Assembly (NCBI GenBank): GCA_963665115.1
Contig: OY762007.1
Coordinates: 1,216,001-1,280,000 of the forward strand
Source of the DNA: an uncultured Rivularia sp.
Lineage (GTDB): Bacteria > Cyanobacteriota > Cyanobacteriia > Cyanobacteriales > Nostocaceae
Length of the DNA stretch: 64,000 nt
Direction of reading: 5' to 3'
Shown: piece after piece, positions 8,482-62,369 of the stretch
How the letters are laid out: the number at the start of each line of letters is the position of its first letter
How positions within the stretch are numbered: position 1 is the first letter of the stretch
The notes under the pieces: model-generated
Databases searched by the model: none
Seen by the model: the letters and a program-made list of their open reading frames with translations, nothing else
What the model was told of the DNA's origin: nothing
Translations under genes and position numbers: made by a program

Positions 8482-8501
8482 CTTGCCGATTAATCCCCGT
8501 A

Positions 8502-19476: not shown

Positions 19477-19520
19477 ATATTTTATCCTTTGTTACTTATT
19501 CCTCAATGCCTAATGCCCAT

Positions 19521-20658: not shown

Positions 20659-20866
20659 GATTCAAAGTTTCCTTAAGCTAAGTTTTTATTTTTTGAGTTA
20701 AAGATTAGAATTCATTCGATTTTGGATTTTGCGGAACATCCCCAAGCAGAGGAACTGGCGTTGGGGTGTAGATTCTCTTCCGCCAAAACTAAGCATCGAC
20801 AGATTTTAGATTTTGGATTGATATTGATGTATATTACAATCCTAAAAAACCTGAATCCCGCCATTG

Positions 20867-21343: not shown

Positions 21344-21553
21344 TTATTTCTCCTAGTTATTTGTCATCAACGCTCCACGAGGGAAAGTAATAATTGAAAC
21401 CCTCGCTACAAATGGAATAAACAAATTTTTGTCTTCCCCATTCCCCATTCCCAATTCCCAATTCCCAATTCCCAATTCCCAATTCCCCGTCCCCAATATT
21501 TATTAGGAGTCATTAGTCAGTAACCTCCGACTAATGACTTTAGGTAATCATCC

Positions 21554-24685: not shown

Positions 24686-24739
24686 AGGTCAAAGGTTAAA
24701 GGTCAAAGGTTAAAGGTCAAAGGTTAAAGGTCAAAGGTT
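24670..24739. repeat. Alternating heptamer tandem repeat (AAAGGTT/AAAGGTC) x ~10
   Basis: Seen directly; it supplies the rfpB stop codon. Confidence 0.9.
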
Positions 24740-24796
24740 AATAAGGCTTGTTTTTAATCTAAAACAAAAATATCCGTTGTTAAAACCCAAAATAGA

Positions 24797-27362: not shown

Positions 27363-27386
27363 CGATTATTTATTAGAAAAAAACAA

Positions 27387-27759
27387 ATGAGCAAACGCAT
27401 TTTAATAATTGATGACGATAAAGATATCCGAGAAGCCACTCAAATGTGTCTAGAAATTTTAGGCTCATGGGAAGTATTGAGTGCTGGTTTCAGGTAAAGA
27501 AGGTTTAGTTACAGCAGCAGCCGAGGTACCCGATGCTATTCTTTTAGATGTAATGATGCCTGAGATGGACGGTTTGACAACTTTTGAGAAGCTACAAGAG
27601 AATCCTGTTACTAAAAATATTCCTGTGATTTTACTAACAGCAAAAGCTCAACCTGCCGAAAAGCGTCATTTTACTCAACTTCGTGTAGCGGGGGTAATTA
27701 CTAAGCCTTACGATCCGTTTACTTTGGCTGATGAAATTACACAGGTTTTGAAGCGATAG
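27387..27759 (+). CDS. rfpC: CheY-like single-domain response regulator; apparent frameshift at ~27489
   Basis: MSKRILIIDDDKDIREATQMCLE...WEVLSAG then SGKEG...DAILLDVMMP...LLTA...KPYD after removing one T. Confidence 0.88.
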
Positions 27760-28901: not shown

Positions 28902-28924
28902 GGTGTTTTTATATATGATTATTT

Positions 28925-33700: not shown

Positions 33701-36700
33701 GTCAGAGAATACAATCAAATTATGGTCTGCTGAAAATGGTCAATTACTTCATACTTTATCTGGACATAAAGATAGGGTTTTAACTGTAAAATTTAGCCCA
33801 GATGGAAAAACTATTGCTACCGCATCATTTGATGGAACAGCTAAATTATGGTCTGCTGAAAATGGTCAATTACTTCATACTTTATCTGGACATAAAGATA
33901 AGGTTTTAAATGTAAAATTTAGCCCAGATGGAAAAACTATTGCTACCGCATCAGAGGATAATACAGTCAAAGTGTGGTCATTTGATGGTAAGTTAGTAGA
34001 TACTTTATCTGAACATAAAGATGGAGTTTTAAATGTAGAATTTAGCCCAGATGGTACAACTATTGCTACCGCATCATTTGATGGAACAGCTAAATTATGG
34101 TCTGCTGAAAATGGTCAATTACTTCATACTTTATCTGGACATAAAGATAAGGTTTTAAATATAGAATTTAGCCCAGATGGTACAACTATTGCTACCGCAT
34201 CAGAGGATAATACAGTCAAAGTGTGGTCAATTAATCGTAGATTACTCTACACTCTATCAGGGAATAACGTGAAGTTTAGCCCGGATAGTAAAATTATTGC
34301 TACTGCTTCAAGAGATGATGGAACAGCCAAATTATGGTCAATTAATGATGGTAAATTACTCCACACTTTATCTGGACGTAGCGTAGAATTTAATCCGGTT
34401 GGTAAAACTATTGCTACCAGATCATTTGATAATACAGTGAAATTGTGGTCATTTGATGGCAAGTTACTGCATACTTGGTCTGGATATAACGTCAAATTTA
34501 GCCCAAATGGTAAAACTATTGCTACTGCTTCACTAGATGATGGAACAGCCAAATTATGGTCAATTAATGATGGTAAATTACTCCACACTTTATCAGGAGA
34601 TAGGGTTAAATTCAGCCCAAATGGTAAAACTATTGCTACCGTATCATTTGATAATACAGTATTGTGGCTAAGAAAATTATCGTCAATAAAATTATGGTCA
34701 ATCGATGGTAGATTACTCCACACTTTACCAGGAAATAGCGTAGAATTTAGCCCCGATAGTAAAACTATTGCCACAATTTCAAGGGATAATAGAATTAATA
34801 AAACTACAGTGAAATTGTGGTCAATCGATGGTAAATTACTCCACACTTTACCAGGAAATAACCATACTTTACCAGGAAATAATGTTACATTTAGCCCCGA
34901 TAGTAAAACTATTGCCACAATTTCAAGCGATTATGGAATCAATAACCATACAGTGAAATTATGGTCAATCAATGGTAGATTACTTCACACCTTATCAGGA
35001 AATAATGTTAATTTTAGCCCTGATAGTAAAACTATTGCTTCTTCAAAAGATGGAAAAGTAGAATTTTGGTCAATTGATGGTCAATTTCTCTACACTTTAT
35101 CAGGATATAATGTTAAATTTAGCCCGGATAGTAAAACTATTGCTACCACATCATCTAGTAAAATAAATTTGTGGTCAATTGATGGTAAATTTCTCCATAC
35201 TCTATTAGGGAATTCATCAAGAAATGATGTTAAATTTAGCCCGGATAGTAAAACTATTGCTACCATTTCAAGGAATAACGATATATTCAGTAATACAGTG
35301 AAATTATGGTCTATTAATGGTAGATTTCTCTACAAGTTATCCGCAAATAGCGTGGAATTTAGCCCAGACAGTAAAACTATTGCTACTTCATCATTTAGTA
35401 AAATAAAATTGTGGTCAATCGATGGTAGATTACTCAACACTTTATCAGGAAATGGCGGAGAATTTAGCCCTGATAGTAAAACTATTGCTACAATTTCAAG
35501 CGATAATAGAATTAATAAAACTACAGTTAAATTGTGGTCAATTGATGGTAAATTCCTCCAAGATTTATCAGGGAATACCGTAGAATTTAGCCCGGATGGT
35601 AAAACTATTGCTTCCGTTTCAGACAATCATATAGTAAAATTATGGAATTGGAATTTTGATAATTTACTAAGTCAAGGTTGTAAGAAACTTGAAGGTTACT
35701 TAATTAACCGTCCAGATAAACTTAAAGAACTTAAAGTTTGTCAAAACCCAGAAATATTAATCGCAGCTGCTTCTACTTTAGTAAGACAAGGTGAGGATTT
35801 AGCTAAAAATGGTGATTCTGCAAGAGTTGTGGCGATGTTTCGTCAAGCTCAAGAATGGAATCCTAAATTAAATATTAACCCAGAGATAAAAGCAAAGGCA
35901 CGATATTTGGTTACTTTAGGTAGAGATTTGGCGAGAAATGGCGATTTTGAAGATGCAATAGAAAAGTTGGAAAAAGCAAAGCAGCTTGATGTTAATATTG
36001 ACCTTGATCCACAAACTGAAGAATTAGATAATAACCCCTCGTCAGTAGCAGGAGAGCTTACAGCCCGATATTTAGTTAGTCAAAGTAGATTTGCGAGAAA
36101 TGGCAATTTTGAAGATATGCTAAAAAAGTTAGAAAAAGCAAAGCAGCTTGATGCAAATATTGACCTTAATCCATTCACTAAAAAATTAGATAACAACCCT
36201 TCTTCAGTAGTAAGAGAGCTTAGAGCAGCATTTATGGTTCGCGAAGGATTAGATTTAATACAAAAAGGTGATTTTAAAGCTGCTATCGCAAAGTTAGAAA
36301 AAGCACAACAGCTTGATGCAAATATCGACTTTAATCCACAAACTAGAGAATTAGATAATAGTCCCCCTGAAGCATTAGTAAAAGAGTTTAAAGCAGCATC
36401 TATTGTTCGCGAAGGAGGAGCATTAATACAAAAGGATAATTTAAAAGGTGCTATAGAAAAGTTTAAAGAAGCACAACAATTTTATCCAGATATTGACCTC
36501 AATCCATTAACTAAAAAATTAGATAACAATCCGAAACTAGCAGCTAGAGAACTTACAGCAATATTTCTTGTCCGCAAAGGAGAACAATTAGTTAGAAAAG
36601 GTGATTTAGAAGGTGCTGTAGAAAAATTTAAAAAAGCACAGCAATTCGATGTAAATATTGATCTAAATCCACGAACTAAAGAATTGGATACTAATCCTGA

Positions 36701-36803
36701 TACAACAGTTCTAGAATTTTTTAAAAATGGACAAAGATTAACGCCACCAATCTCAAACGACTCGTTAATTCCACCACCGCCACCATTGCTACCATCTTTT
36801 TAA
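30734..36803 (+). CDS. CHAT - STAND (nSTAND1-type) NTPase - TM - WD40 - TPR-like protein; apparent frameshift at ~32373
   Basis: FYSGHS and FNSCDGLG (CHAT dyad); CPYQGLSAF; Walker A GASGSGKSS. Walker B VLIADQFEELY is restored by removing one C. LPLLEF, many WD40 repeats and five ~60-aa C-terminal repeats follow. Confidence 0.85.
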
Positions 36804-42740: not shown

Positions 42741-43832
42741 ATGGTACAGTCTGAATTACAACGTACAATTACGACCTCAACCGATAGCGATTTGGTTGTT
42801 AAACCCACCTCTCAAAGTAATGTTGTAGAAAGAAGCGATTATTCCCAGGTATGGGAAAGATTCTGTCAATGGGTAACTAGTACCGATAATCGTCTTTATA
42901 TTGGCTGGTTTGGACTGGTGATGATACCTACTCTTTCCATAGCAGCTATCGTTTTTATAATTGCCTTTATTGCTGCTCCTCCCGTAGATATGGGTGGTTT
43001 GGGAGAACCAATTTCTGGTTCTTTACTTGATGGTAATAATATTATTACTGCTGCTGTTGTTCCCACTTCGGCGGCGATTGGACTGCACTTCTATCCGATT
43101 TGGGCAGCGGCTTCTTTTGATGAATGGCTGTGCAACGGAGGTCCATATCAGCTGATTGTGCTGCATTTTTTGATTGGTATTTATTGCTATCAAGATAGAG
43201 AATGGGAGTTAAGCTATCGTTTGGGGATGCGTCCTTGGATTAGTTTAGCTTTCTCTGCTCCAGTCAGTGCCACAGCCGCAGTACTATTAGTTTATCCAAT
43301 TGGACAAGGAGGTTTTTGTGAGGGAATGCCTTTAGGAATTTCGGGGACTTTCTATTTCATGCTGAAGCTACAAGCCGAACATAATTTTCTGATGAATCCA
43401 TTTCACATGATTGGAGTAGTTGGAGTTTTGGGAGGAGCATTCTTGAGCGCTATGCATGGTTCCTTGGTAACTTCGACTCTGATTCACAAATCCAGCAAAC
43501 ATGGTCATAAAAAACAAGCTTACGATTTTATGGCAGTTCACAATTATTTGGGAAGACTTGCGTGGTATCGCTTGAGTTTCACAAATAAGCGTAATTTGCA
43601 CTTGTTATTAGCAGTTGTGCCGGTGGTAGGGATTTGGTCTGCTGCCTTGGGTGTCGTCTCTATGGCATTCAACATTAATGGCTTGAATTTTAATCGGCAT
43701 ATACACGATAACCAAGAGTACGTAATTAATACCTGGGCAGACTCGATTAGCTGGGCCGACTTAGGAATAAAAGTAATGAACGAAGGCAAAATTCACTCTT
43801 TTCCCTTAGATTTATCATCTGGTAATTGGTAA
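42741..43832 (+). CDS. chlF: Chlorophyll f synthase (super-rogue D1, PsbA4)
   Basis: D1 homolog with the QD signature (YQDREWEL) and altered Mn-cluster region ([24 protein letters not shown]). DE loop is 9 aa shorter than in PsbA3. Confidence 0.93.
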
Positions 43833-43887
43833 TTGGTAGTTGGGCATTGGGGATGGGTAATTGGGCATCGGGAATTAGGAATATTAT

Positions 43888-43977
43888 CTACCCCTTCTAC
43901 CCCCTCTACCCCCTCTACCCCTTCTACCCCCTCTACCCCCTCTACCCCCTCTACCCCCTCTACCCCTTCTACCCCCT
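43888..43977. repeat. 9-bp tandem repeat CTACCCC(C/T)T x ~10, flanked by heptamer repeats
   Basis: Seen directly between chlF and psaA2. Confidence 0.9.
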
Positions 43978-44035
43978 CTCTCCTTGTCCCAATTCCCAAT
44001 CCCCCTTGCCATATTTGAAAAAGGAGATAATTATA

Positions 44036-46404
44036 ATGACAATAACTCCAGAGCGAGAGCAAAAAGTAAAGGTAGTAGTTGACAAAGATCCGGTGCCTAC
44101 TTCTTTTGAGAAGTGGTCGAAACCAGGACACTTCGATCGCTCTCTTACTAGAGGTCCTAAAACCACAACTTGGATTTGGAATCTGCACGCCCTGGCTCAT
44201 GATTTCGATACTCATACCAGTGACTTGGAAGATGTATCTCGCAAAATCTTCGCTGCTCACTTTGGACATTTAGCAGTGATTTTCATCTGGTTGAGCGGGA
44301 TGTATTATCACGGGGCAAGGTTTTCCAATTTTGAATCTTGGATGACTAACCCCACTGGAATTAAACCAAGCGCTCAAATAGTCTGGCCAATATTTGGTCA
44401 AGATATTTTGAATGCCGATATGGGTGATGGCTTCCACGGTATTCAAATTACTTCTGGACTTTTCCAATTGTGGCGGGGTGCTGGATTTACTAATACTTTC
44501 CAGCTTTACTGCACGGCAATTGGAGCGTTAGTAATGGCAGCACTAATGCTGTTTGCTGGCTGGTTCCACTATCACAAACGCGCTCCTAAACTGGAATGGT
44601 TTCAGAATGTGGAGTCGATGTTAAATCACCACTTAGCTGGACTTCTAGGTTTAGGTTCGTTGGGTTGGTGCGGACACCTGATTCATGTTTCTTTACCCAC
44701 TAACAAGCTGTTGGATGCTGGGGTGGCTCTTAAGGATATTCCTTTACCTCACGAGTTCATTTTGAATTCCAGTTTAATGGGAAGATTATATCCCAGTGTT
44801 AATTGGGGTTTTATGAGTGGAGTAGTACCATTTTTTACTCTGAATTGGGATCGATACAAAGACTTTCTGACATTCAACGGCGGTCTAAACCCTACTACTG
44901 GTGGCTTGTGGTTAACAGATATAGCGCACCATCACCTAGCTATAGCTGTAATGTTTATTTTTGCGGGTCATATGTACCGCACTAACTGGGGCATTGGTCA
45001 TAACATCAAGCTTATGCTCGATGACCTGAGAAGTCCTAATATGCTGCCATTTTTGAGCTTTATTGGTCCTAGAGGTCATAAAGGTCTTTATGAAGTCCTG
45101 ACAACTTCCTGGCACGCTCAACTATCAGTCAATTTGGCGATGATGGGTTCTCTGAGTATGATCGTTGCCCATCATATGTATGCAATGCCGCCCTATCCTT
45201 ACCTGGCAACAGACTATGCCACAGTTTTATCTTTGTTCACTCACCATATATGGATTGGAGGTTTTCTGATAGTCGGTGCTGCGGCTCATGGTGCGATTTA
45301 TATGGTGCGCGACTACGACCCAGAAGTTAATTATAATAACGTACTCGATCGCGTAATTCGACACCGAGACGCAATTGTTTCTCACCTAGCTTGGGTGTGT
45401 CAATTCCTCGGCTTTCACAGCTTTGCAATGTATTGTCACAACGACACAATGCGGGCTTTTGGTCGTCCCCAGGATATGTTTTCGGATACGGGAATTCAAT
45501 TACAGCCCGTTTTTGCTCAGTGGATACAGCATATTCACACAATGGCAATTGGAAATCTAGGATTGCAAGCGGCTACACCTTTAGGCAATATGTTTGGGGG
45601 CTTAAGCAATTTACAAACCTCTGGACTGGGAATGACGGCTCCAAGTTTACACGAGCCTGTTAGCTATGCCTTTGGAGGCGGTATTCTTGCAGTGGCTGGT
45701 AAAGTGGCAATGATGCCTATTCCTCTGGGAACGGCTGATTTCTTAATTCACCACATCCATGCTTTTACAATTCACGTCACGGTACTAGTTCTGCTCAAGG
45801 GTGTACTATTTGCTCGCAGTTCCCGCTTAATTCCAGATAAAGCAAACCTCGGTTTCCGCTTCCCTTGCGATGGGGCCCTGGTCGTGGCGGTACTTGTCAG
45901 GTATCTGCTTGGGACCATGTATTCTTAGGACTGTTCTGGATGTATAATTCCCTGTCGATGGTAATTTTCCACTTCTTTTGGAAGATGCAGTCGGATGTCT
46001 GGGGGACGGTTGATGGTAATGGGGTAGTTACTCACATTACTGGTGGAAACTTTGCGATGTCATCGATTACGAATAACGGCTGGTTGCGGGACTTTCTCTG
46101 GGCGCAATCTTCCCAAGTAATCAATTCCTACAATAGTGCGCTTTCTGGATACGGGTTAATGTTCTTAGCCGGACACTTCGTTTTTGGCTTCAGTTTGATG
46201 TTCCTATTTAGCGGTCGTGGCTACTGGCAAGAACTGATTGAATCCATTGTTTGGGCGCACAACAAGTTAAAAATTACCACAGCGATTCAGCCCCGTGCTT
46301 TGAGCATTGTTCAAGGTCGGGCTGTGGGTGCTGCTCACTATCTCTTGGGAGGAATTGTTACTACTTGGGCATTCTTCCTAGCACGAATGAGCGCACTTGG
46401 TTGA
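44036..46404 (+). CDS. psaA2: Photosystem I PsaA, far-red paralog; apparent frameshift at ~45873
   Basis: Start MTITPERE after AAGGAG; lumenal insertion [14 protein letters not shown].... The FX motif [12 protein letters not shown] is restored by removing two bases in GGGGCCC. Confidence 0.93.
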
Positions 46405-46453
46405 AGAAACATCAAAACTCTTGTTCGACTCTCGTACTCTCACTCTCGTGACT

Positions 46454-46558
46454 CTCGTTACTAGGCAGAGCCTAGTAATGGATAAAGGGAGGCTCTGCCT
46501 CCTGAGATGGAAGGCAGAGCCTTTAGATATGCATTCCCTGGCAGAGCCAGGGAACGAG
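46454..46558. repeat. Dispersed palindromic element
   Basis: ctcgttactaggcagagcctagtaatg ... gcattccctggcagagccagggaacgag, with three GGCAGAGCC cores on the + strand and one inverted. Confidence 0.7.
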
Positions 46559-46625
46559 GAGCGCAAAAACGAAAAAACCAACCTAGAATTCATAATTTTC
46601 CCTTACTCAAAAACAATGAAAGTTT

Positions 46626-48848
46626 ATGGCAACTAAATTTCCTAAATTTAGCCAAGACTTGGCACAAGATCCGACAACTCGTCGCGTTTGGTATGCGATC
46701 GCAACTGCTCACGATTTTGAAAGTCACGACGAAATGACGGAGGAAAATCTTTATCAAAGGATTTTTGCTTCTCACTTTGGTCATTTGGCGATTATCTTCC
46801 TGTGGGCTTCGGGTATTCTGTTCCACGTTGCTTGGCAAGGTAACTTTGAAGTTTGGATTAAAGATCCACTCCACGTACATCCAATTGCCCACGCGATTTG
46901 GGATGCTCAATTTGGACCACCAGCGATTGAGGCTTTTACTCAAGCTGGAGCGCATAATCCCGTAGATATCTGCTACTCTGGCGTTTACCATTGGTGGTAC
47001 ACCATCGGTATGCGGGCAAATAATGAACTTTATGGTGGTTCGTTGTTTCTTTTACTACTTGCGGCTGTATTCTTATTTGCAGGATGGCTGCACCTCAAGC
47101 CGAAGTTTCGTCCGGGACTTGCTTGGTTTAAAAACAACGAATCTCGTCTAAATCATCACCTAGCTGGTTTATTCGGTATTAGCTCTTTGGCTTGGGCTGG
47201 ACATTTGATCCATGTCGCAATCCCCGAATCTCGCGGTATTCATGTTGGCTGGAATAACTTTCTAGCTGTGGCTCCACACCCCAGTGGATTGTTACCGTTT
47301 TTCACGGGTAACTGGGGTGTTTACGCACAAAATCCGGATACGGCCAATCATGTATTTAGTTCTTCTGAAGGTGCGGGGACGGCAATTCTCACCTTTTTAG
47401 GTGGCTTCCACCCGCAAACAGAATCGCTGTGGCTAACAGATATGGCGCATCACCACTTGGCGATCGCAGTGATTTTCATTGTTGCGGGTCATATGTACCG
47501 TACCAATTGGAGTATCGGTCACAGCATGAAGGAAATGCTCAATGCTAAGAACTTTTTTGGGCAGAAGGTGGAAGGGCAGTTCAATTTACCTCACCAAGGA
47601 CTGTACGATACAATCAACAACTCTTTACATTTTCAACTGTCTTTAGCGCTAGCTTGTTTGGGTGTAGCGAGTTCTTTGGTGGCACAGCATATGTATTCGA
47701 TGCCGCCTTATGCTTTCATAGCTCGCGATTTTACTACAATGTCAGCGCTTTATACCCATCACCAATACATAGCCGGATTTTTGATGGTAGGGGCATTTTC
47801 TCACGCTGCGATTTTCTGGATTAAAGACTATGACTCAGAATTGAACAAGGGTAATGTCCTAGAAAGAGTTTTGCAGCACAAAGAAGCGATTATTGCTCAC
47901 CTGAGTTGGGTATCTCTATTCCTTGGCTTTCACACTTTGGGATTGTACGTTCACAATGACGTAGAGGTTGCTTTTGGTGCAGCGGATAAACAAGTCCTAA
48001 TTGAGCCAGTATTTGCTCAGTTTATCCAGTCGGCTCACGGAAAAGTACTCTACGGATTTAACACTTTGCTGTCGAACTCCGATAGTATTGCTTCGACAGC
48101 ATGGCCGAACCACGCTAACGTTTGGCTGCCCGGTTGGCTCGATGCAGTTAACAGTGGTGCGAACTCCTTATTTTTGACAATTGGTCCTGGTGACTTTTTG
48201 GTTCACCACGCGATCGCCTTGGGCTTGCACGTTACCACCTTGGTTTTAGTTAAAGGTGCGTTGGATGCTCGTGGTTCCAAACTAATGCCAGATAAGAAAG
48301 ACTTTGGTTACTCTTTCCCTTGTGATGGTCCCGGACGTGGCGGTACCTGCGATATCTCTGCTTGGGATGCTTCTTATCTAGGTGTATTCTGGATGCTCAA
48401 TAGCCTTGGTTGGATAACATTCTACTGGCACTGGAAGCATTTAGCTATTTGGTCTGGAAATGTCGCCCAATTCAATGAAAATTCTACTTATTTGATGGGC
48501 TGGTTCCGAGACTACTTGTGGAACTATTCAGCATCACTGATTAACGGTTACAATCCTTACGGTACCAATAACCTAGCTGTTTGGACTTGGATGTTCCTCC
48601 TCGGACATTTAGCTTGGGCTGTGAGTTTCATGTTCTTAATTACTTGGCGGGGTTACTGGCAAGAGTTGATTGAAACTCTCGCTTGGGCACACGAACAAAC
48701 ACCACTATCTTTTGGTTACTGGAAAGATAAGCCTGTTGCTTTGTCTATTGTTCAGGCTCGTTTAGTTGGCTTAACTCACTTCACCGTTGGTTATATTGCC
48801 ACCTATGGGGCATTTCTAATTGCTTCGACGGCAAGTCGATTTGGTTGA
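46626..48848 (+). CDS. psaB2: Photosystem I PsaB, far-red paralog
   Basis: [38 protein letters not shown], 740 aa. Confidence 0.95.
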
Positions 48849-49140
48849 CGATTTTCACAATATGTAAAGACGTAGCAATGCTACGTCTCTGCATTCAATA
48901 AAAAAACCTATTTTTTACTACTATTATTAAAGCTGAGAAAACTTATTTTTGAGCTTTACAAATTTGTCATTCGACCTCCTCTGACATGAGAGCCAAAGCC
49001 TATTTGTTAGAGGTTTTTTTTATGCTTAATTAATTGAAAAAGTATTGATTTTTGTGACAATTAAATATAAAAAAGTACATTCATTTATAAAATTAAGATA
49101 AGAGGATTTTCATAAGTAATAAAATAAAGAATAGGGAACT

Positions 49141-49653
49141 ATGGCTAATACCGATACAGAAATTATAAAACCATATCAAGGCAACCCCTTTGTTGCAAAT
49201 TTATCTACACCTATCAACGATTCTCCCCTAGCAAAAGCCTTTATTAATAATTTACCTGCTTATCGTCAAGGCTTAACTCCTTTTATGCGAGGTTTAGAAA
49301 TTGGTATGGCTCACGGTTACTTTCTAGTAGGACCAGAAGTTGTAGTTGGACCACTCCGAGAAACTGCACATGGGGCTAATTTAAGTGGATTAATTACCGC
49401 TATTTTTATCACTGTATCAGCCTGTTTGGGCATATCTATTTTTGCCTTGGCTACTTTTCAAGGAAATCCTCGCGGGGCTTATAACTCCTACTGCAAAGAT
49501 CCTTTAAGACCATTGCGAACTCGTGAAGAATGGAATCAACTTAATGGGGGAATATTTATTGGTTCAATGGGTGGAGCCGTGTTTGCTTACTTGCTATTAG
49601 AAAATTTTGATGCTTTAGATGCCATGCTTCGCGGTGCAGTTAATGTTGGCTGA
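49141..49653 (+). CDS. psaL2: Photosystem I subunit XI, far-red paralog
   Basis: LSTPINDS, NNLPAYR, GLEIGMAHGYFLVGP. Confidence 0.92.
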   Translation: MANTDTEIIKPYQGNPFVANLSTPINDSPLAKAFINNLPAYRQGLTPFMRGLEIGMAHGYFLVGPEVVVGPLRETAHGANLSGLITAIFITVSACLGISIFALATFQGNPRGAYNSYCKDPLRPLRTREEWNQLNGGIFIGSMGGAVFAYLLLENFDALDAMLRGAVNVG

Positions 49654-49716
49654 TGTTTGATTTTTGGGCTTAAATTTTCAATAGCTATTTACTTCTATCT
49701 AAGCAGGAGAATAATC

Positions 49717-49914
49717 ATGGTAGATATCACACAACTGACAGGAGAATATGCGGCTTCCTGGTTGCCTTGGATAATGATTCCTTTAATTTTTTATATCCTA
49801 CCTTTCCCCATTTTCGCTATCCTTTTTCTTTGGATTGAAAAAGAAGATATTGAAGAAGAAAGAACGGATATTCCAGTAAATCAAATGATGGGTAATGTCA
49901 CAAATATGGACTAA
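49717..49914 (+). CDS. psaI2: Photosystem I subunit VIII, far-red paralog
   Basis: ATG after AGGAG; MVDITQLTGEYAASWLPWIMIPLIFYILPFPIFAILFLWIEKE. Confidence 0.9.
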   Translation: MVDITQLTGEYAASWLPWIMIPLIFYILPFPIFAILFLWIEKEDIEEERTDIPVNQMMGNVTNMD

Positions 49915-53711: not shown

Positions 53712-56507
53712 TTAAAGCCAATTCCCAACTAAGACATAAGGTGCCCAAATCAACGGCGGTTCACTATTCTTTAAAAGTTTAATTTGGGCTTGCTGTAAAG
53801 CTTTTGCTTTGTTCGATTTATGCTGTTGTAATTCTCGGTAAAATTGACTCATCAATTGAGCAGTAGATTTATCTTCAACAGCCCATAAGCTAGCTAAAGT
53901 ACTCCTGGCACCCGCACTAATAGCAATCCCAGAAAGCCCTAAAGTTGCTCTTTTATCTCCATTAGCGGTTTCGCAAGCACTAAGTACTAATAACTCAATA
54001 GCTTGAGAATCTGCATTTTTATTAATCTGAAATAATTTATCGAAGTCTTCAAGTTTTAATAGTTTGTTCCACGTCAAAATATAGGTTTCTTCTGAGTTTG
54101 AACTAAAATTACCGTGGGTAGCAATATGAACTATGGTATATTTGGCTGAATCAATTTGCTTTTCTAAGTTGACATCGGTGAAGGATCGATCGATCAGTTT
54201 TTTACTTTTAGGTATTTGTAACCTAATTGTATCCAACTCAAGCTGCACGTTATTGAGAGGATTAAATTCTTGATTATTAATTATTCGCTTTTCGGTGACT
54301 CCAGCCATCAGAATATTTAATTCTTTTCTTTTTAACGGTTTTGGCTCCAGCATTTGCAAACCTGGAGTTAAAACAATGGCATATTTTTCGATTAAATATT
54401 TTGGCTGTTTTTCTTGCGCTTTACTATCGTATAATACCGCCATTGGAATATTTCTTAAGTTGCCATCTAAGACAAATACCAATGTTTCTATTTTGTTTTG
54501 TTCTAAATCAGCTTCTAATGGTTGAATTAACCAACTATATATCTTTCCAGAGATTTGATTTACTTTCTTAATTTGTTCTGGTTGTCTGAGACTGTATTGT
54601 AGTTTTTCTAAGGTGTTTTCAAGTTCATTCGCTTTAAGAAAAGTGGTGTAACGATTAAATTTATCTTGATTGGGAAGTTTGAGAATTATTTCGAGACGGT
54701 TTTGTAAAATAATTGGGTAAATAACTGCTGCTGCGGTATCAGTGTTATCAACTACTGTATCAATAATTTCAGGTTTAGCCTGCAAGCAAACTTCCTGAAA
54801 GTAATTTTCTATTTCCCTTAATTGTAGAGCTTCAATCACATCGCGGGCTTTTTTTAAGTTGTTGCTAACTAAGTTTTGTTTACTCAAACTTTTTGTAGTT
54901 ACATTCTGAGATGGTGACTGTAAAAGTAAATCAACGAGTTGTCTATAAACTGGCTCTACTTTATCTCGAAATGAATATTGTATATCTGAATTGAGTACGA
55001 GCAAATCACCACGCAAATCGTTTAAATTCTCTACCGCTTGAGAATAATATTCTATTGCTGAGGTAGTGTTTTGTTCAAGTTTGAATATATATCCTAATTG
55101 CCATTGCCAAAGATAAGCTATATCTTGAGCTTCTATTCTCAAGGCTAAGTCAACAGCTTTTTTAGTTAGTTTACCAGCGGAATTCAAATTTTGGGTTTGT
55201 AAGTATACGCTACCAAGAGTACCCATTGCATAAGATTGCAATCTTGTATCTTCCAAGGTTTCCGCTTGTTTAATCGATAAAGCTAAAATTTTGGCTATCT
55301 TTTCCCATTCCGGTACATTGCTCGGACTTACTTGTTTTAATAATAATAGATTTTGTGCTAAATTAATCCGAGCCTTAAGTGATGTGTTAGATACGGGCAA
55401 TGTATTGATAGTTGGTTGCAATTCAGAGAATAATTTGCCAGCTTTGGAAAATTCTTCAAGTTCTATTAATACACTAAATTTATTTAATTGGGCTTTAACT
55501 TTGATTGCGGGTGATGTCGATACAGCTACAGTTTTATCGTAGTTTTCTAAGGCTTGCTGATATAATTTTCTTGTTTCTTCAGATATCGGTTTACTCACAT
55601 AAACTAACGGCGAAGTTTGCTCAAATATTGTTGCGTTTTGTAAAAGCGACTGCTCTTTATTTCCCTTTGCACGTTGAGCGTTACCCAAACTCAGCAAAGT
55701 TTGAGCGATTTGAGGATTAGATTTAATTTCTTGAGCGGTTTGATAGCTTTGCTGTAAAATTTTTAAGGAGGCTTCAATTTCCCCTAAATGTAATTGAACG
55801 TCACCAAAACTGCGTAATGCTGTTACTTTAAGAACGGAGGCTGGCTGTTGATTTAATTCGGGAAGCACTTGTTCTAAAGTTTTCAGAGCTAGGTGATAAC
55901 GTCCTAAAGCTTGTAATGCCAGACTTTGATTGATTAAACTCCGAATTTTTGCATTATTGAAATCACCTCGTTCGTAGATAGCAGTAGCTTTTTTCCAGTT
56001 TTCTAGAGCTAATAAGGGTTTTCCTAACGTTAACTGGATGTTAGCTTGAATATCTAAAACTTGAGCAAATACTTTTAATCTTTCCTTGTCATCATCAATA
56101 TTTAATTTATTTTCTAATAATTGACGGCTTTGGATAATGTACTTCAGAGCTTGCTGATATTCACTAATTTGCTTGTAAGCGTTGGAAATATTGCTGAGTG
56201 CGATCGCCTGTTTAATTGGATTACTTTGATTTTGAAAAGTTAGCGCTGCTTGCTCTAAAATAGATATCGCTTCTGAAAACCTTTGTGCATCATAAAGTTT
56301 TTTACCTTTTTCCAATAAATCTTCTGTATTTATCTGATTTTGACTAATTTGAGCCAGATAAGCTGGATTAAAATTACTTTGTGTGAAATTATTTTGAGCA
56401 TCAGCTTTCGGTAGCGAAACAGGAATTAAAATTGATTCGCAAACAAAAGTGAATATACCTGCTAAAACAAATAAAATTATTTTTGAAAGCCATCTTTTAT
56501 ATTGCAT
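53712..56507 (-). CDS. TPR + CHAT domain protein
   Basis: Signal peptide, TPRs, HIATHGNFS, LSACETA, WAPYVLVGNWL. Confidence 0.9.
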   Translation of the reverse strand: MQYKRWLSKIILFVLAGIFTFVCESILIPVSLPKADAQNNFTQSNFNPAYLAQISQNQINTEDLLEKGKKLYDAQRFSEAISILEQAALTFQNQSNPIKQAIALSNISNAYKQISEYQQALKYIIQSRQLLENKLNIDDDKERLKVFAQVLDIQANIQLTLGKPLLALENWKKATAIYERGDFNNAKIRSLINQSLALQALGRYHLALKTLEQVLPELNQQPASVLKVTALRSFGDVQLHLGEIEASLKILQQSYQTAQEIKSNPQIAQTLLSLGNAQRAKGNKEQSLLQNATIFEQTSPLVYVSKPISEETRKLYQQALENYDKTVAVSTSPAIKVKAQLNKFSVLIELEEFSKAGKLFSELQPTINTLPVSNTSLKARINLAQNLLLLKQVSPSNVPEWEKIAKILALSIKQAETLEDTRLQSYAMGTLGSVYLQTQNLNSAGKLTKKAVDLALRIEAQDIAYLWQWQLGYIFKLEQNTTSAIEYYSQAVENLNDLRGDLLVLNSDIQYSFRDKVEPVYRQLVDLLLQSPSQNVTTKSLSKQNLVSNNLKKARDVIEALQLREIENYFQEVCLQAKPEIIDTVVDNTDTAAAVIYPIILQNRLEIILKLPNQDKFNRYTTFLKANELENTLEKLQYSLRQPEQIKKVNQISGKIYSWLIQPLEADLEQNKIETLVFVLDGNLRNIPMAVLYDSKAQEKQPKYLIEKYAIVLTPGLQMLEPKPLKRKELNILMAGVTEKRIINNQEFNPLNNVQLELDTIRLQIPKSKKLIDRSFTDVNLEKQIDSAKYTIVHIATHGNFSSNSEETYILTWNKLLKLEDFDKLFQINKNADSQAIELLVLSACETANGDKRATLGLSGIAISAGARSTLASLWAVEDKSTAQLMSQFYRELQQHKSNKAKALQQAQIKLLKNSEPPLIWAPYVLVGNWL

Positions 56508-56707
56508 ATTTTTTTACTGAACAACACTTAAATTATTAAAATTGTATTGCTAAAATTTGCACGCTTTCATATTGCTTGAGACGTAGTAATGCTACGTCTC
56601 TACATTTGATATTATGTTTACCGCAAAATTAATTGGCTTGACTCACCGAAGCAACTTGAGATTTTTGCTTTATTGTTTCAATTTATTTAAATACTATTTA
56701 GCATAGC

Positions 56708-56926
56708 TTAAAAACGTCTGTGGGGACAAAAGATAGTAAAATAAATCGATGGTTCAACCCAATCTGTGATATGAATGTATTCATTTTCATCTATAAATCT
56801 ATCCGTTTCAGGTGATTCTAGAAATTGAATATTATTAGTTGTCTCTCGCTCAAGAAGATGTTTGAACCCAGTTAAACGATTTAACCTGGACAATATATAA
56901 GAGAAAGGATTTTGTAAATATTTCAT
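56708..56926 (-). CDS. Small hypothetical protein
   Basis: 72-aa ORF preceded by the CTGCATAA-N17-CTAT motif. Confidence 0.55.
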   Translation of the reverse strand: MKYLQNPFSYILSRLNRLTGFKHLLERETTNNIQFLESPETDRFIDENEYIHITDWVEPSIYFTIFCPHRRF

Positions 56927-57421
56927 AATGAGTGTTTATATCTAACGCTTAAAGTTTGACTACGAATATATAGGAGCCAGTTCGATCTAATTATGCAGTT
57001 TGGATCGAAATGCTAATAATTAACTTTCTAACAATCGGTATATCACGAACTGTACTTATTAATTGCGATTAGGAACTTGATTACAAATCTTAATGAATAA
57101 ATGTTAATAAAACAGATAATTTTTGGATAATCTGCATAAATTAGCAAAAGCTTCCCCTATAGGATAAATAGAATAAACTCGCACCTTTTAACGGGAGGTA
57201 GAAGTCAAAAAAATTTATGCATTATCAATTAAAAATTCAAAATTACCATTACCTAAAGTTTGAGGCTTGAAGCAAGGAATATGCTTTTATCTTTTTCTCC
57301 TCAATTAAACAATTAAAAAATAATTATTTTTTAATTTTTAATGCGGGCATTTTTAATTTTGAATTAAAAAAATGGTCAAATGCACCATATTATGTACTGA
57401 AGAATAAAAATTAACTTCCGA

Positions 57422-57739
57422 TTGTTTACAACTAGAGATTTACTTACCATGCGAAATATCAATAATCAAAAACTCGATAAAGAAGCAATAAATATTTTGT
57501 ACGGTAACGATCGGGGATGTTTTTCTAATATGTGGAAATATGATATAGATAGTCTTGATTTACACGATAATAAAACAAAATTAAAAACTAAACATTTAGG
57601 TAACGAAATCTTTGCAATTTGCTTGATTGCAACTCTTTTTTCGATCGGCTTTGGAGGTAGTCATTTAATTAAAAGTAGGACTAAGGGGCAATTGATTTAT
57701 CATCCAGTTCCACAAACATCTAGTACTATTCGTCAATGA
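57422..57739 (+). CDS. Small single-TM hypothetical protein (likely ATG at 57449)
   Basis: Hydrophobic segment IFAICLIATLFSIGFGG. Confidence 0.5.
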   Translation: MFTTRDLLTMRNINNQKLDKEAINILYGNDRGCFSNMWKYDIDSLDLHDNKTKLKTKHLGNEIFAICLIATLFSIGFGGSHLIKSRTKGQLIYHPVPQTSSTIRQ

Positions 57740-57821
57740 AAAATAGTTTAAGCAAAGCTAAACTGACATGAATAAACCAGGATAATAACAAATCAAATCA
57801 TATTCAAATAGAATTTATCTG

Positions 57822-58055
57822 ATGGCACATTCTAAAAATAGTGTTGTTCCGCTAAAACCGGAATTTAGGCAATATGTTCGCTCAAGTGTGGTAGAAAATA
57901 AATCTGAATCTACAGCTAAATCAGGTTTGATATATGTAATAGTAATAATTATTTGGTGTTTTGGAATGCTGCTGTTAGCTAAAGCTAGCCATAAGTTTTT
58001 ACAAGAGATTTGTCTTAATTCAGTTCAAAAAATACATTTGAAAGTGAAGTATTAG
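57822..58055 (+). CDS. Small single-TM hypothetical protein
   Basis: Hydrophobic segment LIYVIVIIIWCFGMLLL. Confidence 0.5.
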   Translation: MAHSKNSVVPLKPEFRQYVRSSVVENKSESTAKSGLIYVIVIIIWCFGMLLLAKASHKFLQEICLNSVQKIHLKVKY

Positions 58056-58124
58056 TAGTCAACCGCATTAATTTTGCAGGGTAAATTATTCGTAGTGGGA
58101 GCGTCTCGCTCCCTGGTTGTCCTT

Positions 58125-58438
58125 CTAATCTAATTGTTGCATTTCCCGTTTCAATATCCCATAATCTAACTAATTTTACCGCGTTACCATCGCTTCCCGT
58201 AGCTAAATTTTGCCGTCATGGCTTAAAGCAACTGCAAGTAGCCAATTAATCGGAATTATGACTTTCAAGTGTATGCAATTGTCTTGCAGAGTCAACTTCC
58301 CATAAATATATTTGATCGTCAATGGCTGTAGCGAATAAGTTGTTTGTTGGACTGAATTTTGCCGCAAAAATACTACTTAAAGTGTTGGTAAATATTGATT
58401 TACTTAAATCGGAATTAGCAAAGTTTGTTTGTACCCAT
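58125..58438 (-). pseudogene. Remnant of a pentapeptide/WD40 (NB-ARC-WD40-type) gene
   Basis: Broken frames read TNFANSDLSKSIFTNTLSSIFAAKFSP...YLWEV...HTLESH and WLLAVALSHDG..LATGSD...LWDIETG. Confidence 0.7.
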
Positions 58439-58454
58439 TTCTAAGCATTATTTT

Positions 58455-59514
58455 TTACAATTCAAAATTTTCCTTAATAATCACATTTCCCAAACTAATT
58501 TGTATACTAAATTTTTTCCCTGGTTTCCCCTTGAAAGGTTTCAATTGAATGTAATTATCTTGAATTCTAGACGTAACTTCTTGGAGGGTTTTACCAGCTT
58601 TAGAAATTAACAGCAACTTGATATTCTGCGGTAAATATTTTTCGCTATTCATGGGATATAGCTGAGCTAAAACGTTAATTTTATCTTCACTAATTTCATC
58701 TTGACTGTCAGCAGATTTATCAGGAGATATATTAACTAGCAGCGCAACTTTTCTATTACCCAAATCTATGCCTAAATCAATAATTTTCGCTTTTTTAGTA
58801 GCTTTATCAAGATTTCTGGTACTAAAAGCTAAATTTAATTCTGGATTGGAAATGGAATCTATTGTTTGCCAAGCTTCATCAATTACTCCTTGCAACCATT
58901 GACTTAACTTAGTGGTAGTTGTGTTTACAAGTTTGGATAAACTTTGATTCGCAACGGGTAGAGCAAATTCGGATGCTTGCAAGTAACGCTGATACACTAA
59001 TAAATGGCTTGGTTCCATATCAAATAGAGACAGGGGTAGTTGATAACAACCTTCATCTACAGATAATTTCAAACTACTTTTAATCTCTATCAATTGATTG
59101 TAAGGTAAAAAGCCTCTAATTATAACTTCTTCCTCTTCTTCCAATACCTCTAAAAGCACATAATAATGGGCTGTTAATTCCGGCTTTTCGATTACCGCTT
59201 GTGGTATTTTGACAACTTCATCTAACAAATGCTCGGTGGCGATCGCACAAAATTTGAAGTCATCAATTTTGAGATTTCCAACAGTTTCAATAAAGCTGGT
59301 ATCTCTGGATACTACTTTATTTGGTAAGCGCTCGCATAACCATTCCTCAAATGCAAGTAGTGCTAATGCATTAAGATAGGCTTGCCAAGAATCGTTAGGA
59401 TTAGTGGTATCTAAAGAACTGATTTTTTGTGCTAACAAGAAATGTTCGGGTTTCTAACCAGACGGTTTCTCGTAGCAAAAGCCTTAACTCTTGAGAATAA
59501 GTTGAATTTGGCAT
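58455..59514 (-). CDS. DUF1822-family protein; apparent frameshift at ~59452
   Basis: MPNSTYSQELRLLLRETVWLE then PEHFLLAQ; WQAYLNALALLAFEEWL, AHYYVLLEVLEE, LSQWLQG, ENFEL. Confidence 0.82.
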
Positions 59515-59702
59515 GATCTTACCTAGTGTATAAAGGTAAATAGTTGTGAGCCGGAAAAGCTTATGCAGTTTATTATATGACTCTATGGACTTATGGTAAG
59601 ATTTTTAATTAAGGATATAAGCCTCATACTTTAGGCTAAGTTAATTTTGAATTTTGAATTTTGAATTTTGAATTGTTTTGACTATTGCTTACCTATCTGT
59701 TT

Positions 59703-61175
59703 CTAGCATAATTTAGCTTCTTGCCCCTGTAGAGATTGTTGAATATAACAACGAAGTTCCTTAGCATATGGACTATTCATCGTCCGATTTTTACCCGCTC
59801 TAATTTCTTCGGCAGCTTGTTGAAATATTTCTCCATCAACATAGGATTCAATTTGTTCGGTTAAAGTTAGAAGATAATTTGCTTCGGGTGGAATTTTAGT
59901 TAAACCTTTCTCTGCGGCTTTTTTCAAAATACTGTCCAACATCTGCTCAACCGTTTTAGTACGCACTTTTAATAAAAGTTCTCCGGGATTCAAAATTCGT
60001 CTTGCTTGATCCCAACTAGTCATTCCTAATTGAGGTGCAATCTCTTTTAAAGACATTGCTGATTCGTAATACAAATGCAATCCCTGAATGTATTTTTGAG
60101 CAAAAGACTGATACCTTTTACTTTTTTGTAATTTTTGAATATTAACTTCTACTTCTTGCTTAATTGTTTGGGACAAAGTTGCTTGAAGTGAGTCATGCAA
60201 AAACTTTAAAAAATCTTGCTGCTCTAAATCCGCTTCATTAAGTGATGAACTAGGTAAATCGCGTCTCGCTACATATGTACCGCTTTCACTATCGTATATA
60301 TCTAAAGATTCTCTAGAATTCCAAACATCGTACCTTCTTAACTGTAGAGCAATTTGTTTGAGTTCTTTAATTAACTGAACTTGAGTATTAATTTGAATTT
60401 GATGGTGCTGTAAATAAGATAGCATTTCTTCTAATTGAGCAGTAGTTGGATCGGGACATTTCTTGTTCCCTTTATTTTTTTGTTGCTGCCTGTCTCGACG
60501 ATAAACAGCGTGAAAAGCTTCGACAACGTAGTATTCTTGCGGTGATAAACGTTCAAGTTGTTTTTTTCTAGTTCTATTTAACAGTGCCCAGTCACTCGAA
60601 TGCTGAAAACCAAACTCCGATAAGAACTTTTTCAATTCGGGATTTTGTTTTGTTTGCAAATATGCCCAATTATCCAGACTCATCCGAGATTGTAATTCGG
60701 AGTTGAATGTTTGTAAAACCTTGACAGAAAAGAAGTTATACTCCGAAGCGCGAGTTTTAGAACTGTCATCTACCATTAGTTGAGTTTTCCCATCTCTGTC
60801 TAAAACAATTAATTTTTCTCCATCATCATTGAGAACAAACGGTAATAAATCCCGATAACTAAACTGTTTTTCACCACTAAATAAAGAATCCAATTTTTTG
60901 CATTCTCGCAAAATTGGCTCAGAAACATAGCATCTAAGACAAAGACCTGCCTTAGCGCAATTAATCGTATCTTCTCCACCATTTTCACCTTTAAAACGCG
61001 ATAATAGAATATTTTGTTCGTTACTATCTTCTACATCGAAGACTTGACTATTTGTAAATTCTTGAGCAACGGTAACATGAAATTGTTTATACCCGGATTT
61101 TTCCGCAGCAGGGTTAATCCGCCAAATTTTCCAATATCTTGAAGAAGTATTCATAGTCAATGTATCACTCGTCAA
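59703..61175 (-). CDS. Large sigma-70-like / HTH protein paired with DUF1822
   Basis: AGLCLRCYVS, SDWALLN, FHAVYRRDR, HTH MSLKEIAPQLG...ARRI. Paralog of 28925..30496. Confidence 0.6.
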   Translation of the reverse strand: MTSDTLTMNTSSRYWKIWRINPAAEKSGYKQFHVTVAQEFTNSQVFDVEDSNEQNILLSRFKGENGGEDTINCAKAGLCLRCYVSEPILRECKKLDSLFSGEKQFSYRDLLPFVLNDDGEKLIVLDRDGKTQLMVDDSSKTRASEYNFFSVKVLQTFNSELQSRMSLDNWAYLQTKQNPELKKFLSEFGFQHSSDWALLNRTRKKQLERLSPQEYYVVEAFHAVYRRDRQQQKNKGNKKCPDPTTAQLEEMLSYLQHHQIQINTQVQLIKELKQIALQLRRYDVWNSRESLDIYDSESGTYVARRDLPSSSLNEADLEQQDFLKFLHDSLQATLSQTIKQEVEVNIQKLQKSKRYQSFAQKYIQGLHLYYESAMSLKEIAPQLGMTSWDQARRILNPGELLLKVRTKTVEQMLDSILKKAAEKGLTKIPPEANYLLTLTEQIESYVDGEIFQQAAEEIRAGKNRTMNSPYAKELRCYIQQSLQGQEAKLC

Positions 61176-61592
61176 ACAAATATTTATACAACACTCTTAC
61201 CATGTATATGGATGTTAGTAGATAGGAATTATGCAGGATATACAGCAGATTTCATTTAAGTGAGGTACACATCGTTTCTAGAGGAAGTAGTGAGTAGGGA
61301 GTAGTGAGTAGGGAGTAGGGAAATGTACCTCATATACCTGCAAAGTGCTGTAGGTGTAGGTTGTTGAAATAATTTATTTAAGATACATGAGGCATTCCTT
61401 GAGTTAAGTCTTCAATAAGTTTAATTTTCATCGGTTTTTATGTTTCAATAAATCTCTATTTTAAAAGATGGGGCAATTTTTCGGCAAACCTACTAAGCTA
61501 CCCCACGCAGTTTGATATTTTTTATTTTGAATTCAAAAAATTGTCATAGATAATGAGCTTGATACAATAATGCAATAAATAATAGCTAATAA

Positions 61593-62369
61593 CTAAATCG
61601 CTCTCAAAGGGCAAATTTGTTTACCAACAACTGTATCCATCACAACAACTTCTAAACCAAAAACTTGTCGAATATTTTCTGGATTCATCACAAGATTAGT
61701 TTCTCCATCCACCAAAATCTCACCGTTAAATAGCATTGCTAATCTATTACTGTATCTAGCGGCTAAATTCAGTTCGTGTAATACGGTGATAATTGTTAAT
61801 CCTTGTTCTAAGTTTAATTTTTTGAGTAAGTCTAATAGCTGTAGCTGATAGCGTAAGTCTAAATATGTAGTGGGTTCATCTAATAGTAACACCTGCGGAT
61901 TTTGCGCTAAAGCTAAAGCAAGAAAAGCTCTTTGTCGCTCTCCACCCGATAATCTTTCTACCGGACGATTTCTAAACTTTTCAATTCCCACAGCATGAAT
62001 TGCTGACTCTACCTTATCCCTATCTTGAGCATCTAATTCCCATTGCCACCAACTTTGATGGGGATTGCGTCCCAAACTTACTAACTGATAAACGCTTAAA
62101 CCCGCAGGTACAGTTTGCTGTTGCGGCAATAATGCCATTTTTTGCGCTACTTCTACAGCACTTTGATTGTGAATTGCTTTTCCATCTAACAATATTCTCC
62201 CCTTTTGCGGTGAAAGTATCCTGCTAATAAGTTTGAGTAAAGTGGATTTACCAGAGCCATTCGCACCGACTAAACTCAACCACTCACCGCTAGCAATATC
62301 AAGGTTGATATTACGAACAATTGGCTTCTTAGAATAACCACCAGTAAGACGATTAACATTTAATGACAT
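61593..62369 (-). CDS. Iron-chelate/cobalamin ABC transporter ATP-binding protein (FecE-like)
   Basis: GANGSGKST, LSGGERQR, LLLDEPT, HELNLAARY. Confidence 0.92.
   Translation of the reverse strand: MSLNVNRLTGGYSKKPIVRNINLDIASGEWLSLVGANGSGKSTLLKLISRILSPQKGRILLDGKAIHNQSAVEVAQKMALLPQQQTVPAGLSVYQLVSLGRNPHQSWWQWELDAQDRDKVESAIHAVGIEKFRNRPVERLSGGERQRAFLALALAQNPQVLLLDEPTTYLDLRYQLQLLDLLKKLNLEQGLTIITVLHELNLAARYSNRLAMLFNGEILVDGETNLVMNPENIRQVFGLEVVVMDTVVGKQICPLRAI

Follow-up and report, generated by a model that had tools for sequence, protein, structure and literature searches.

The stretch analysed here, hereafter the window, comprises 64,000 nucleotides of contig OY762007.1 (positions 1,216,001 to 1,280,000) of an uncultured Rivularia sp., a cyanobacterial genome represented by a single contig of 8.69 Mb in which photosystem genes and HetZ are present. 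Close to its end, on the minus strand, a gene for a predicted divergent sigma70-type protein of 490 aa (59703..61175, with a likely start at ATG 61154) is followed by a DUF1822 gene (58455..59514; PF08852, E 9e-63), whose product is predicted to bind the sigma-like protein. Assignment of the former rests on a structure model, fold searches and a profile link to a paralogue. Both genes, and some of their neighbours, are preceded by a motif built of two short boxes, TGCATAA and CYAT, separated by 17 nt (N17). The motif, the protein that may read it and the role of DUF1822 are the subject of this work.

Two-box motif in the window and in the genome

The first-pass annotation had reported four copies of the motif, in the form CTGCATAA-N17-CYAT, and all four were recovered as exact matches at the coordinates and on the strands claimed. 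The copy at 61208..61236 (minus strand) is likely the self-promoter of the sigma-like gene, and that at 59540..59568 (minus) is likely the own promoter of DUF1822. The third, at 57132..57160 (plus), lies ahead of two genes for small membrane proteins, and the same genes are also preceded by the motif in two related loci, L014 and L015. The fourth, at 56970..56998 (minus), faces a 72-aa open reading frame (ORF) and a TPR-CHAT gene whose start is 463 nt away. This last site is the weakest and least conserved of the four: the CHAT side of L014 and L015 carries no match at the threshold used, and the match in L019 is degenerate. None of 100 shuffles of the window yielded any two-box match. Within the window, box 1 by itself shows hardly any enrichment (8 sites, a number reached by 3 of 100 shuffles), so the signal resides in the pairing of the boxes.

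The copies had been described as always intergenic and pointing at a gene. This applies to the four, but a fifth exact copy had been overlooked at 32762-32790 (minus), antisense within the nSTAND1-WD40 reading frame; being intragenic and antisense, it was set aside. Moreover, orientation toward a gene fails as a test of the motif, as a sense gene lies downstream of 17 of the 21 N17 sites in the genome and of 14 of 17 sites at control spacers.

Throughout the genome, CTGCATAA is followed by CYAT at spacer 17 in 15 instances, whereas the 21 other spacers between 8 and 29 nt give 2.9 on average and 8 at most. Of 492 intergenic copies of TGCATAA, 21 are followed by CYATW at N17 and 10 at N16, while 25 other spacers used as controls give a mean of 2.3 and a maximum of 6. 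No excess is present in coding sequences (3 at N17), and the leading C of the first box is merely preferred (36/55 sites). The motif is thus well above background genome-wide, and the regulon of four local sites proposed at first is replaced by about 20-30 sites across the genome; 16 of 31 sites fall in the segment 1.0-1.62 Mb. We regard TGCATAA-N17-CYAT as almost certainly a real promoter-like motif.

The ten intergenic sites with a 16-nt spacer (for example G000:C1:1166221, 1171703, 1435924, 5003725 and 8112287) possibly represent the code of another paralogue, and two such sites flank a frameshifted sigma-like gene at 1170288-1171494. About 50 intergenic TGCATAA copies in G000:C1 belong to a dispersed repeat, in which TGCATAA is followed by a fixed sequence, and are unrelated to the promoter motif.

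Conservation of the motif in relatives

Conservation was assessed in 31 related loci (480 kb). In this set, CYAT follows 57 of 135 TGCATAA copies after exactly 17 nt, and no other spacer from 8 to 29 nt accounts for more than one. The two-box pattern recurs at related loci with its spacing intact. Ahead of sigma-like genes of the clade that includes the 490-aa protein (clade A, see below), the site is placed mostly 77-83 nt before the profile start. When 42 matches ahead of 51 clade-A genes were anchored on box 1 alone, the columns of the second box were 81-86% conserved, whereas spacer columns 1-15 reached 40-67%. Of 27 orthologous loci, 21 have a match no more than 200 nt from the DUF1822 start, mostly at 53-55 nt.

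All 27 same-genus genomes carry between 8 and 45 sites, in total 643 compared with 83 for a reversed-pattern control; because these genomes are kin, their counts cannot be treated as independent. Beyond the genus, sites are often few or absent, and a phylum-wide count (201 genomes) is too noisy to tie motif number to gene presence. Nine other genomes have a strong match (E<1e-130), and only one of them has 10 sites, while four have none. In G314 the sole exact TGCATAA-type site stands directly ahead of the clade-A gene, and the same is seen in G340.

Two local arrangements of the motif were also observed. In L003:6090-7233 and L030:6045-7221, tandem genes of 84-90 aa without family assignment are located just upstream of the sigma gene, each behind its own motif copy. 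In G382:C4:498579-504331, six copies are packed into 6 kb, 13-19 kb from a clade-A gene.

The second box differs between two clades

The relation between the second box and the neighbouring protein was evaluated across 147 different members of the family, whose clades were defined solely by the protein tree. Clade A (support 0.96) comprises 51 proteins, including the 490-aa protein, and clade B comprises 69, with no support value printed for its node. Box 1, TGCATAA, is common to both. Upstream of clade-A genes, a YYAY (CYAT-type) box is present at N17 in 40/51 cases and GAnnTA in none, while clade B has GAnnTA at N14-15 in 42/69 cases and YYAY in three. Shuffles reach at most 5. The remaining 27 family members, left out of this contrast, have five YYAY and three GAnnTA boxes. 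In loci fetched after the rule was set, 11 of 12 clade-A genes carry their own box and none the other, and 31 of 53 clade-B genes carry their own box and one the other. The clade-B paralogue of the source genome, with a clade-B box 105 nt upstream, also fits the rule. Residues diagnostic for the clades cluster at positions 169-178 and in a hairpin insert (125-136). At the level of sequence, the contrast ties the second box to the protein encoded next to it. The layout expected of autoregulated extracytoplasmic function (ECF) sigma factors is present as well, with a candidate self-promoter (the motif upstream of 40/51 clade-A genes) and the adjacent gene of a predicted binding partner.

Available start-site supplements gave no corresponding sites: the partial table in PMC5580265 holds seven first-box matches, and neither second box follows any of them at the expected distance, and the supplements of PMC4143802 and PMC8155712 hold no first-box match. 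Nostoc punctiforme, grown in the laboratory and with a start-site map already published, hosts a plasmid locus (L065, NC_010631.1:107962-110765) with a clade-B sigma gene and its GAnnTA-type site, together with DUF1822, CHAT, CHASE2 and DUF928 genes.

Predicted fold and affinity of the 490-aa protein

In the structure model (predicted local distance difference test, pLDDT, 82; predicted template modelling score, pTM, 0.52), the 490-aa protein is composed of a sigma2 domain (residues ~50-189) with a beta-hairpin insert (~119-147), a helical region resembling a helix-turn-helix (HTH; ~190-290), a sigma4 domain (~329-410) and a helical tail. Sigma chains occupy most of the top 50 rows in the Foldseek search. 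Once re-aligned, the 50 listed rows consist entirely of sigma factors and sigma-containing RNA polymerase complexes, and the majority are colinear over residues 22-414. Taken alone, sigma2 (~42-189) fits the sigma2 domains of WhiG, SigA and RpoS with Z 5.9-6.5 and root-mean-square deviation (rmsd) 3.1-3.2 over 96-99 residues (best fit: Z 6.5, rmsd 3.1, 97 residues), and residues 329-410 fit region 4 of SigE with Z 4.9 and rmsd 2.7 over 68/69 residues. The structural comparison suggested in the first-pass annotation therefore recovers both sigma2 and sigma4 folds, at moderate Z (<8). Residues 190-290 lie inside the colinear matches to group 1-3 sigmas and also match generic HTH/SANT domains.

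The family comprises 595 representatives (E<=0.001) and carries no family label. Its profile matches a 395-aa DUF1822-linked paralogue (E 1.6e-10; hhalign probability 96.6%), and this paralogue reaches 101.6 bits on TIGR02937, where the cut-off is 42.9; the family is thus linked to sigma70 by indirect homology. In the Atlas, the 490-aa protein is surrounded by hypothetical proteins of cyanobacteria that grade into sigma70-region-4 clusters. Sequence searches of solved structures retrieved no sigma2: one gave no match, and the family profile gave HTH domains and region 4 of SigF at E 0.016. By its modelled fold and this indirect homology, the 490-aa protein is of sigma70 type, with its role being a predicted one.

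Sigma factors of the ECF type (group 4) are compact proteins of about 200 aa, composed of sigma2 and sigma4 and lacking sigma3. The 490-aa protein, with a helical middle domain of 100 residues and a tail, does not belong to this plain two-domain form. In the proposal of an unusual large sigma factor, computation supports the sigma70-type fold, the promoter-like geometry of the motif and the site at its own gene. Identity with HetZ was ruled out, since there is no NF037963 match, the profile probability is 3.8%, and HetZ is encoded elsewhere in the genome.

DUF1822 and the predicted complex

The motif was correctly placed 26 nt ahead of the DUF1822 ATG, and orthologues indicate that ATG 59514 is the true start; however, it is out of frame with the remainder of the gene. 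In this assembly the frameshift, at about codon 21, results from a T-run at 59451-59453 with one base more than its counterparts in L001 and L004; were it genuine, the sigma would be expected to be constitutively active in this strain. The intact L001 orthologue (87% identical) was modelled (pLDDT 74.5). It consists of an alpha/beta N-terminal domain, a low-confidence linker (~188-243) and a beta-sandwich. The N-terminal domain fits PD-(D/E)XK nucleases (D212 with Z 8.7 and rmsd 4.0 over 135 residues; I-Ssp6803I, Z 7.8; Hjc, Z 6.9) and the C-terminal domain fits Ig-like folds (Z ~6), while a Foldseek search with the model gave nothing under E 1e-3. Assignment of DUF1822 as a TPR protein was rejected on account of this mixed alpha/beta and all-beta architecture and of a Pfam scan giving PF08852 only. 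The catalytic motif of PD-(D/E)XK enzymes is D...(D/E)xK. Five DUF1822 paralogues beside short sigmas keep D...EC (ECR in four), and the window copy has N/G and C-A-I there, so by sequence alignment catalytic-like residues seem to be kept in the former and lost in the latter. No membrane segment was detected in DUF1822, and no conserved protease cut site is evident in its linker columns.

Co-folding of the L001 sigma/DUF1822 pair gave a score of 0.85 in three runs, compared with 0.01 for the best of three controls; the mark applied is reached by 116 of 157 solved pairs and 2 of 215 mismatched pairs. The runs share at least 71% of contacts, and pLDDT of the partner is at least 73. Only the N-terminal domain of DUF1822 forms a confident interface, which involves sigma2 and the middle domain together with the end of sigma4 and the tail. 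Because no solved structure related by sequence was found for the sigma, memorisation by the prediction program is a less likely cause of this result. The earlier suggestion that DUF1822 is a sigma partner gains in this way a predicted binding mode.

In the source genome, DUF1822 is encoded 12 times, in every case immediately after an ORF of this broad sigma-like kind, and four of these 12 ORFs belong to the 490-aa family. A second DUF1822 gene occurs in the window at 27858-30496 (minus) with a 523-aa paralogue (34% identical), divergent to a split CHAT-nSTAND1-WD40 gene (30734-36803, plus). The paralogue is without a matching two-box site upstream and may use another promoter code.

Proposed mechanism and alternatives

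On balance, we favour a reading in which the motif would be a -35/-10 promoter, with TGCATAA as -35 and CYAT as -10, recognised by the adjacent 490-aa divergent sigma70-type factor. The targets of this factor would be its own gene, that of DUF1822, and genes for proteases and signalling; DUF1822 would bind it and likely hold it inactive. The parts of this reading differ in strength. That the motif is the promoter of DUF1822-linked sigma-type factors is very probable, and that the 490-aa protein reads it is probable. Sigma4 may read TGCATAA, because this box is common to both clades and a helix residue, R393, is nearly invariant. The sigma2.3-2.4 helix may read the second box, because the clade-diagnostic residues cluster at 169-178. 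The self-promoter would provide positive feedback and the separate DUF1822 promoter negative feedback. In its inactive state, the sigma would be held by the nuclease-like domain of DUF1822 on all four regions of the predicted interface; such an inhibitory effect, which we draw from analogy with PatU3, is the sign towards which we lean. The weakest step is release, for which a cytoplasmic CHAT/caspase sensor encoded elsewhere would free the sigma, perhaps by cutting the DUF1822 linker, and we put it forward tentatively, as a proposal that may well be wrong.

Several results weigh against this reading. The best Foldseek E value is just 1.7e-3, no fold match of the 490-aa protein reaches Z 8, and the protein matches no sigma family in Pfam or NCBIfam. 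Just 18 of 102 relatives match TIGR02937 at E<=0.01, and a profile comparison with the canonical sigma2 domains of the genome gave 3% probability, although it puts residues 154-190 in the same register as region 2.3-2.4. The motif is missing upstream in four close relatives whose recognition helix is identical (L039-L041 and L158, from small genomes), and three of these genomes are without any exact site; self-activation would thus not be a general property. The co-fold used the L001 orthologues with custom-made alignments and speaks to neither affinity nor inhibition. Finally, the clade switch is one evolutionary split and counts as one independent contrast.

The identity of the reader is touched by a further lineage. 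A 509-aa DUF1822-linked sigma-like protein (encoded at G000:C1:1208394-1209923) has the same CYAT motif upstream of its gene in 12/12 loci, and it could be the actual reader, with the 490-aa gene as a downstream step of a cascade under another promoter. Genome G135 (99% complete) has sites at the 509-type pair and at a DUF928-like gene and no match to the 490-aa family, and G531 has the 509 type, no clade-A match, and 18 sites compared with 8 in controls. However, the second box tracks the clade of the neighbouring 490-family gene. Furthermore, a clade-A gene with a site and no close 509-type match is found in G304, G314, G340 and G535; the site in G304 has one mismatch and this genome gives no match to the 509-aa query, and in G535, where only a distant 509-like match exists (E 1e-31), there are 18 sites genome-wide compared with 0 in controls. 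Genome G443, with neither close form, has the lowest site count in the genus (8). We consider an exclusive 509-type reader unlikely. Assignment of the motif to the 490-aa protein stands in so far as the gene is adjacent and the second box is clade-linked, and has to be widened to the 509-aa lineage; both DUF1822-linked lineages probably use the same promoter class and share a regulon.

With sigma and promoter as proposed, DUF1822 could still be a co-activator, chaperone or DNA-binding helper, and not an anti-sigma. Its N-terminal domain is modelled with a PD-(D/E)XK-like fold of the kind that binds nucleic acids, a membrane segment is absent, and the sign of its effect is not given by the predicted complex. 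An interface spanning four sigma regions at once nevertheless resembles that of PatU3 on HetZ (PMC13342950), and a partner gene with its own sigma-dependent promoter would fit negative feedback. A helper function is, in our estimate, slightly less probable than the exclusive 509-type reader.

A more distant explanation regards the sigma-derived protein as an ordinary activator or repressor with two HTH domains, and the motif as its bipartite operator, with initiation left to the housekeeping sigma. The DLxQE motif of a sigma helix serves binding to the beta' coiled coil of the polymerase, and here this helix reads DLLPF. Sequence and fold scores for sigma2 are weak, and the nearest solved-sequence matches of the family profile are HTH domains of repressors. 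Nevertheless, the site is non-palindromic, has one exact spacer and is placed 25-55 nt ahead of the sigma and DUF1822 start codons, and whole sigma chains align colinearly with the protein. HetZ also provides the precedent of a true sigma that is unrecognisable by sequence (PMC13342950), and we regard the operator explanation as improbable. An origin of the repeats by chance or as remnants of mobile repeats, to which the weak enrichment of CTGCATAA alone and the dispersed TGCATAA repeat might point, is refuted by the spacer spectrum (57 versus at most one) and has practically no probability left, the more so as spacer sequences differ while boxes and distance are kept across genera, and an Rfam scan of 56400-61600 gave no RNA match.

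Extended beyond this locus, the favoured reading would describe a large unrecognised cyanobacterial class of insertion-bearing sigmas with a modular code, in which a shared -35 (TGCATAA) is combined with a clade-specific -10 (CYAT or GAnnTA). Each sigma would be held by a soluble anti-sigma made of a dead restriction-nuclease fold and an Ig-like sensor, and freed by caspase-like proteases, whereupon genes for proteases, kinases and secretion would be switched on. We offer this generalization as a speculative one. If it is true, the paralogues of a cell would operate circuits side by side that are partly insulated from one another, an unlabelled family of several hundred clusters and DUF1822 would obtain a role, and the TPR label would be corrected. 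Two clades with a common -35 and different -10 boxes would provide a natural test of sigma2 specificity and possible orthogonal promoters. Cyanobacterial genomes have many CHAT/caspase genes and DUF1822 pairs without tested function, and a defined promoter makes the switch testable; a reconstituted cyanobacterial polymerase system in E. coli exists (PMC13342950).

Candidate target genes and setting of the locus

Outside the window, 20 first-downstream genes were scanned (13 at N17, 6 at N16 and 1 at a clade-B site). Among them are genes for a TPS/haemagglutinin protein, one histidine and one Ser/Thr kinase, iSTAND, CHAT-AAA35, DUF928 and a C14 caspase, and also for MFS, a GMC oxidoreductase, P450, a symporter, CpeS and a SpoIIAA-like protein. 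Seven of the 20 are without family, and a few are expected to represent chance sites. Of 14 motif-led genes scanned in relatives, seven encode CHAT proteins, one an astacin and one a CAP protein, and seven related loci have a motif-led CHAT gene downstream.

In the window, the TPR-CHAT (caspase-like) protease is encoded at 53712..56507 (minus; CHAT E 3.5e-59, plus TPR families). Its HG and SAC motifs are intact, with H798 and C845, which we take to be the catalytic dyad. A hydrophobic segment at its N-terminus suggests that it is likely exported and, as such, more likely an output than the trigger. The 72-aa ORF (56708..56926, minus) is a doubtful gene, with one syntenic partial match in 31 loci (42% over 45 aa, L019) and no family over the cut-off. 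On the plus strand, the 57132 site is followed by a 96-aa protein with one weakly hydrophobic helix (57449..57739; hydropathy 1.8), having syntenic homologues in 3/31 loci, no Pfam or NCBIfam match and Atlas matches under 0.9, and by a 77-aa single-helix membrane protein without family (57822..58055; hydropathy 2.7), having homologues in 3/31 loci and in 5 of 151 family genomes, the source included. Compared with L014 and L015, about 200 extra bases are present between the motif and the 96-aa gene (57190-57450), including a 17-codon ORF at 57218. Of the two sites proposed to serve the CHAT protease and the small membrane proteins, the one before the latter is kept in L014 and L015, and the 56970 site on the CHAT side is poorly conserved.

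The sigma/DUF1822/CHAT block is located within clustered extra copies of psbB/C/D/A, apc and psaA/B/L/I, accompanied by a response regulator and a GAF histidine kinase (12098-22639, 23399-27759 and 42741-49914), which together resemble a far-red-light acclimation cluster. Another module of the same gene kit is present at 1249-9230, with a secretion-pore-like gene, TPR-CHAT, DUF928, CHASE2 and a response regulator. Genes split by frameshifts were observed at 1249-2348, 2777-5468, 17142-19476 (apcE-like), 30734-36803 and 43826-46404 (psaA-like), in addition to 59451-59453, which suggests indel errors in the assembly.

Comparison with known systems

A search among open-licence papers found no experimental study of the sigma/DUF1822 pair and no paper on a TGCATAA promoter. 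The pair itself was noted computationally, as an ECF sigma with DUF1822 beside EACC2-caspase genes, by Kaur et al. 2021 (PMC8195603). The neighbourhoods described there are of the same kind, with a sigma-like gene adjoining DUF1822 among caspase/CHAT genes in cyanobacteria, and a protease-to-transcription step was proposed. Section 9 of that paper differs in giving no promoter, binding model or experiment, and in labelling DUF1822 as TPR, where our model has a nuclease-like domain and a beta-sandwich. The neighbour in the window is also different, being a likely exported TPR-CHAT and not a sensor-caspase.

For the release step, modules of CHAT protease, anti-sigma and sigma in type III CRISPR systems (TPR-CHAT, Csx30 and CASP-sigma; CalpL, CalpT and CalpS; 10.1101/2023.06.23.546230) offer a precedent in which a CHAT or related protease frees a sigma from its bound partner. 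They differ from the present locus in that the adjacent CHAT is likely exported here, and no CRISPR or cyclic-oligonucleotide link turned up in family scans, which included no dedicated search.

The experimentally tested parallel is HetZ of Anabaena PCC 7120, an equally unrecognisable cyanobacterial protein proven to be a true sigma (Hu et al. 2026, PMC13342950), whose inhibitor PatU3 cross-links to three HetZ domains. Going by that work, each of the two systems has a large, insertion-bearing sigma and a two-box promoter of its own (spacer 16-17 bp), and in each the downstream gene encodes a soluble inhibitor, predicted in our case, that contacts several sigma domains. They differ in the promoter, TCCGGA/TGnA for HetZ and TGCATAA/CYAT here, and in the partner, PatU there and DUF1822 (PF08852) here. 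The sigma/DUF1822 gene pair near caspase genes is thus already known (PMC8195603), and the present analysis adds the rule of a shared -35 with a switched -10, the predicted complex, a DUF1822 fold that is not TPR, and evidence that the promoter has two readers.

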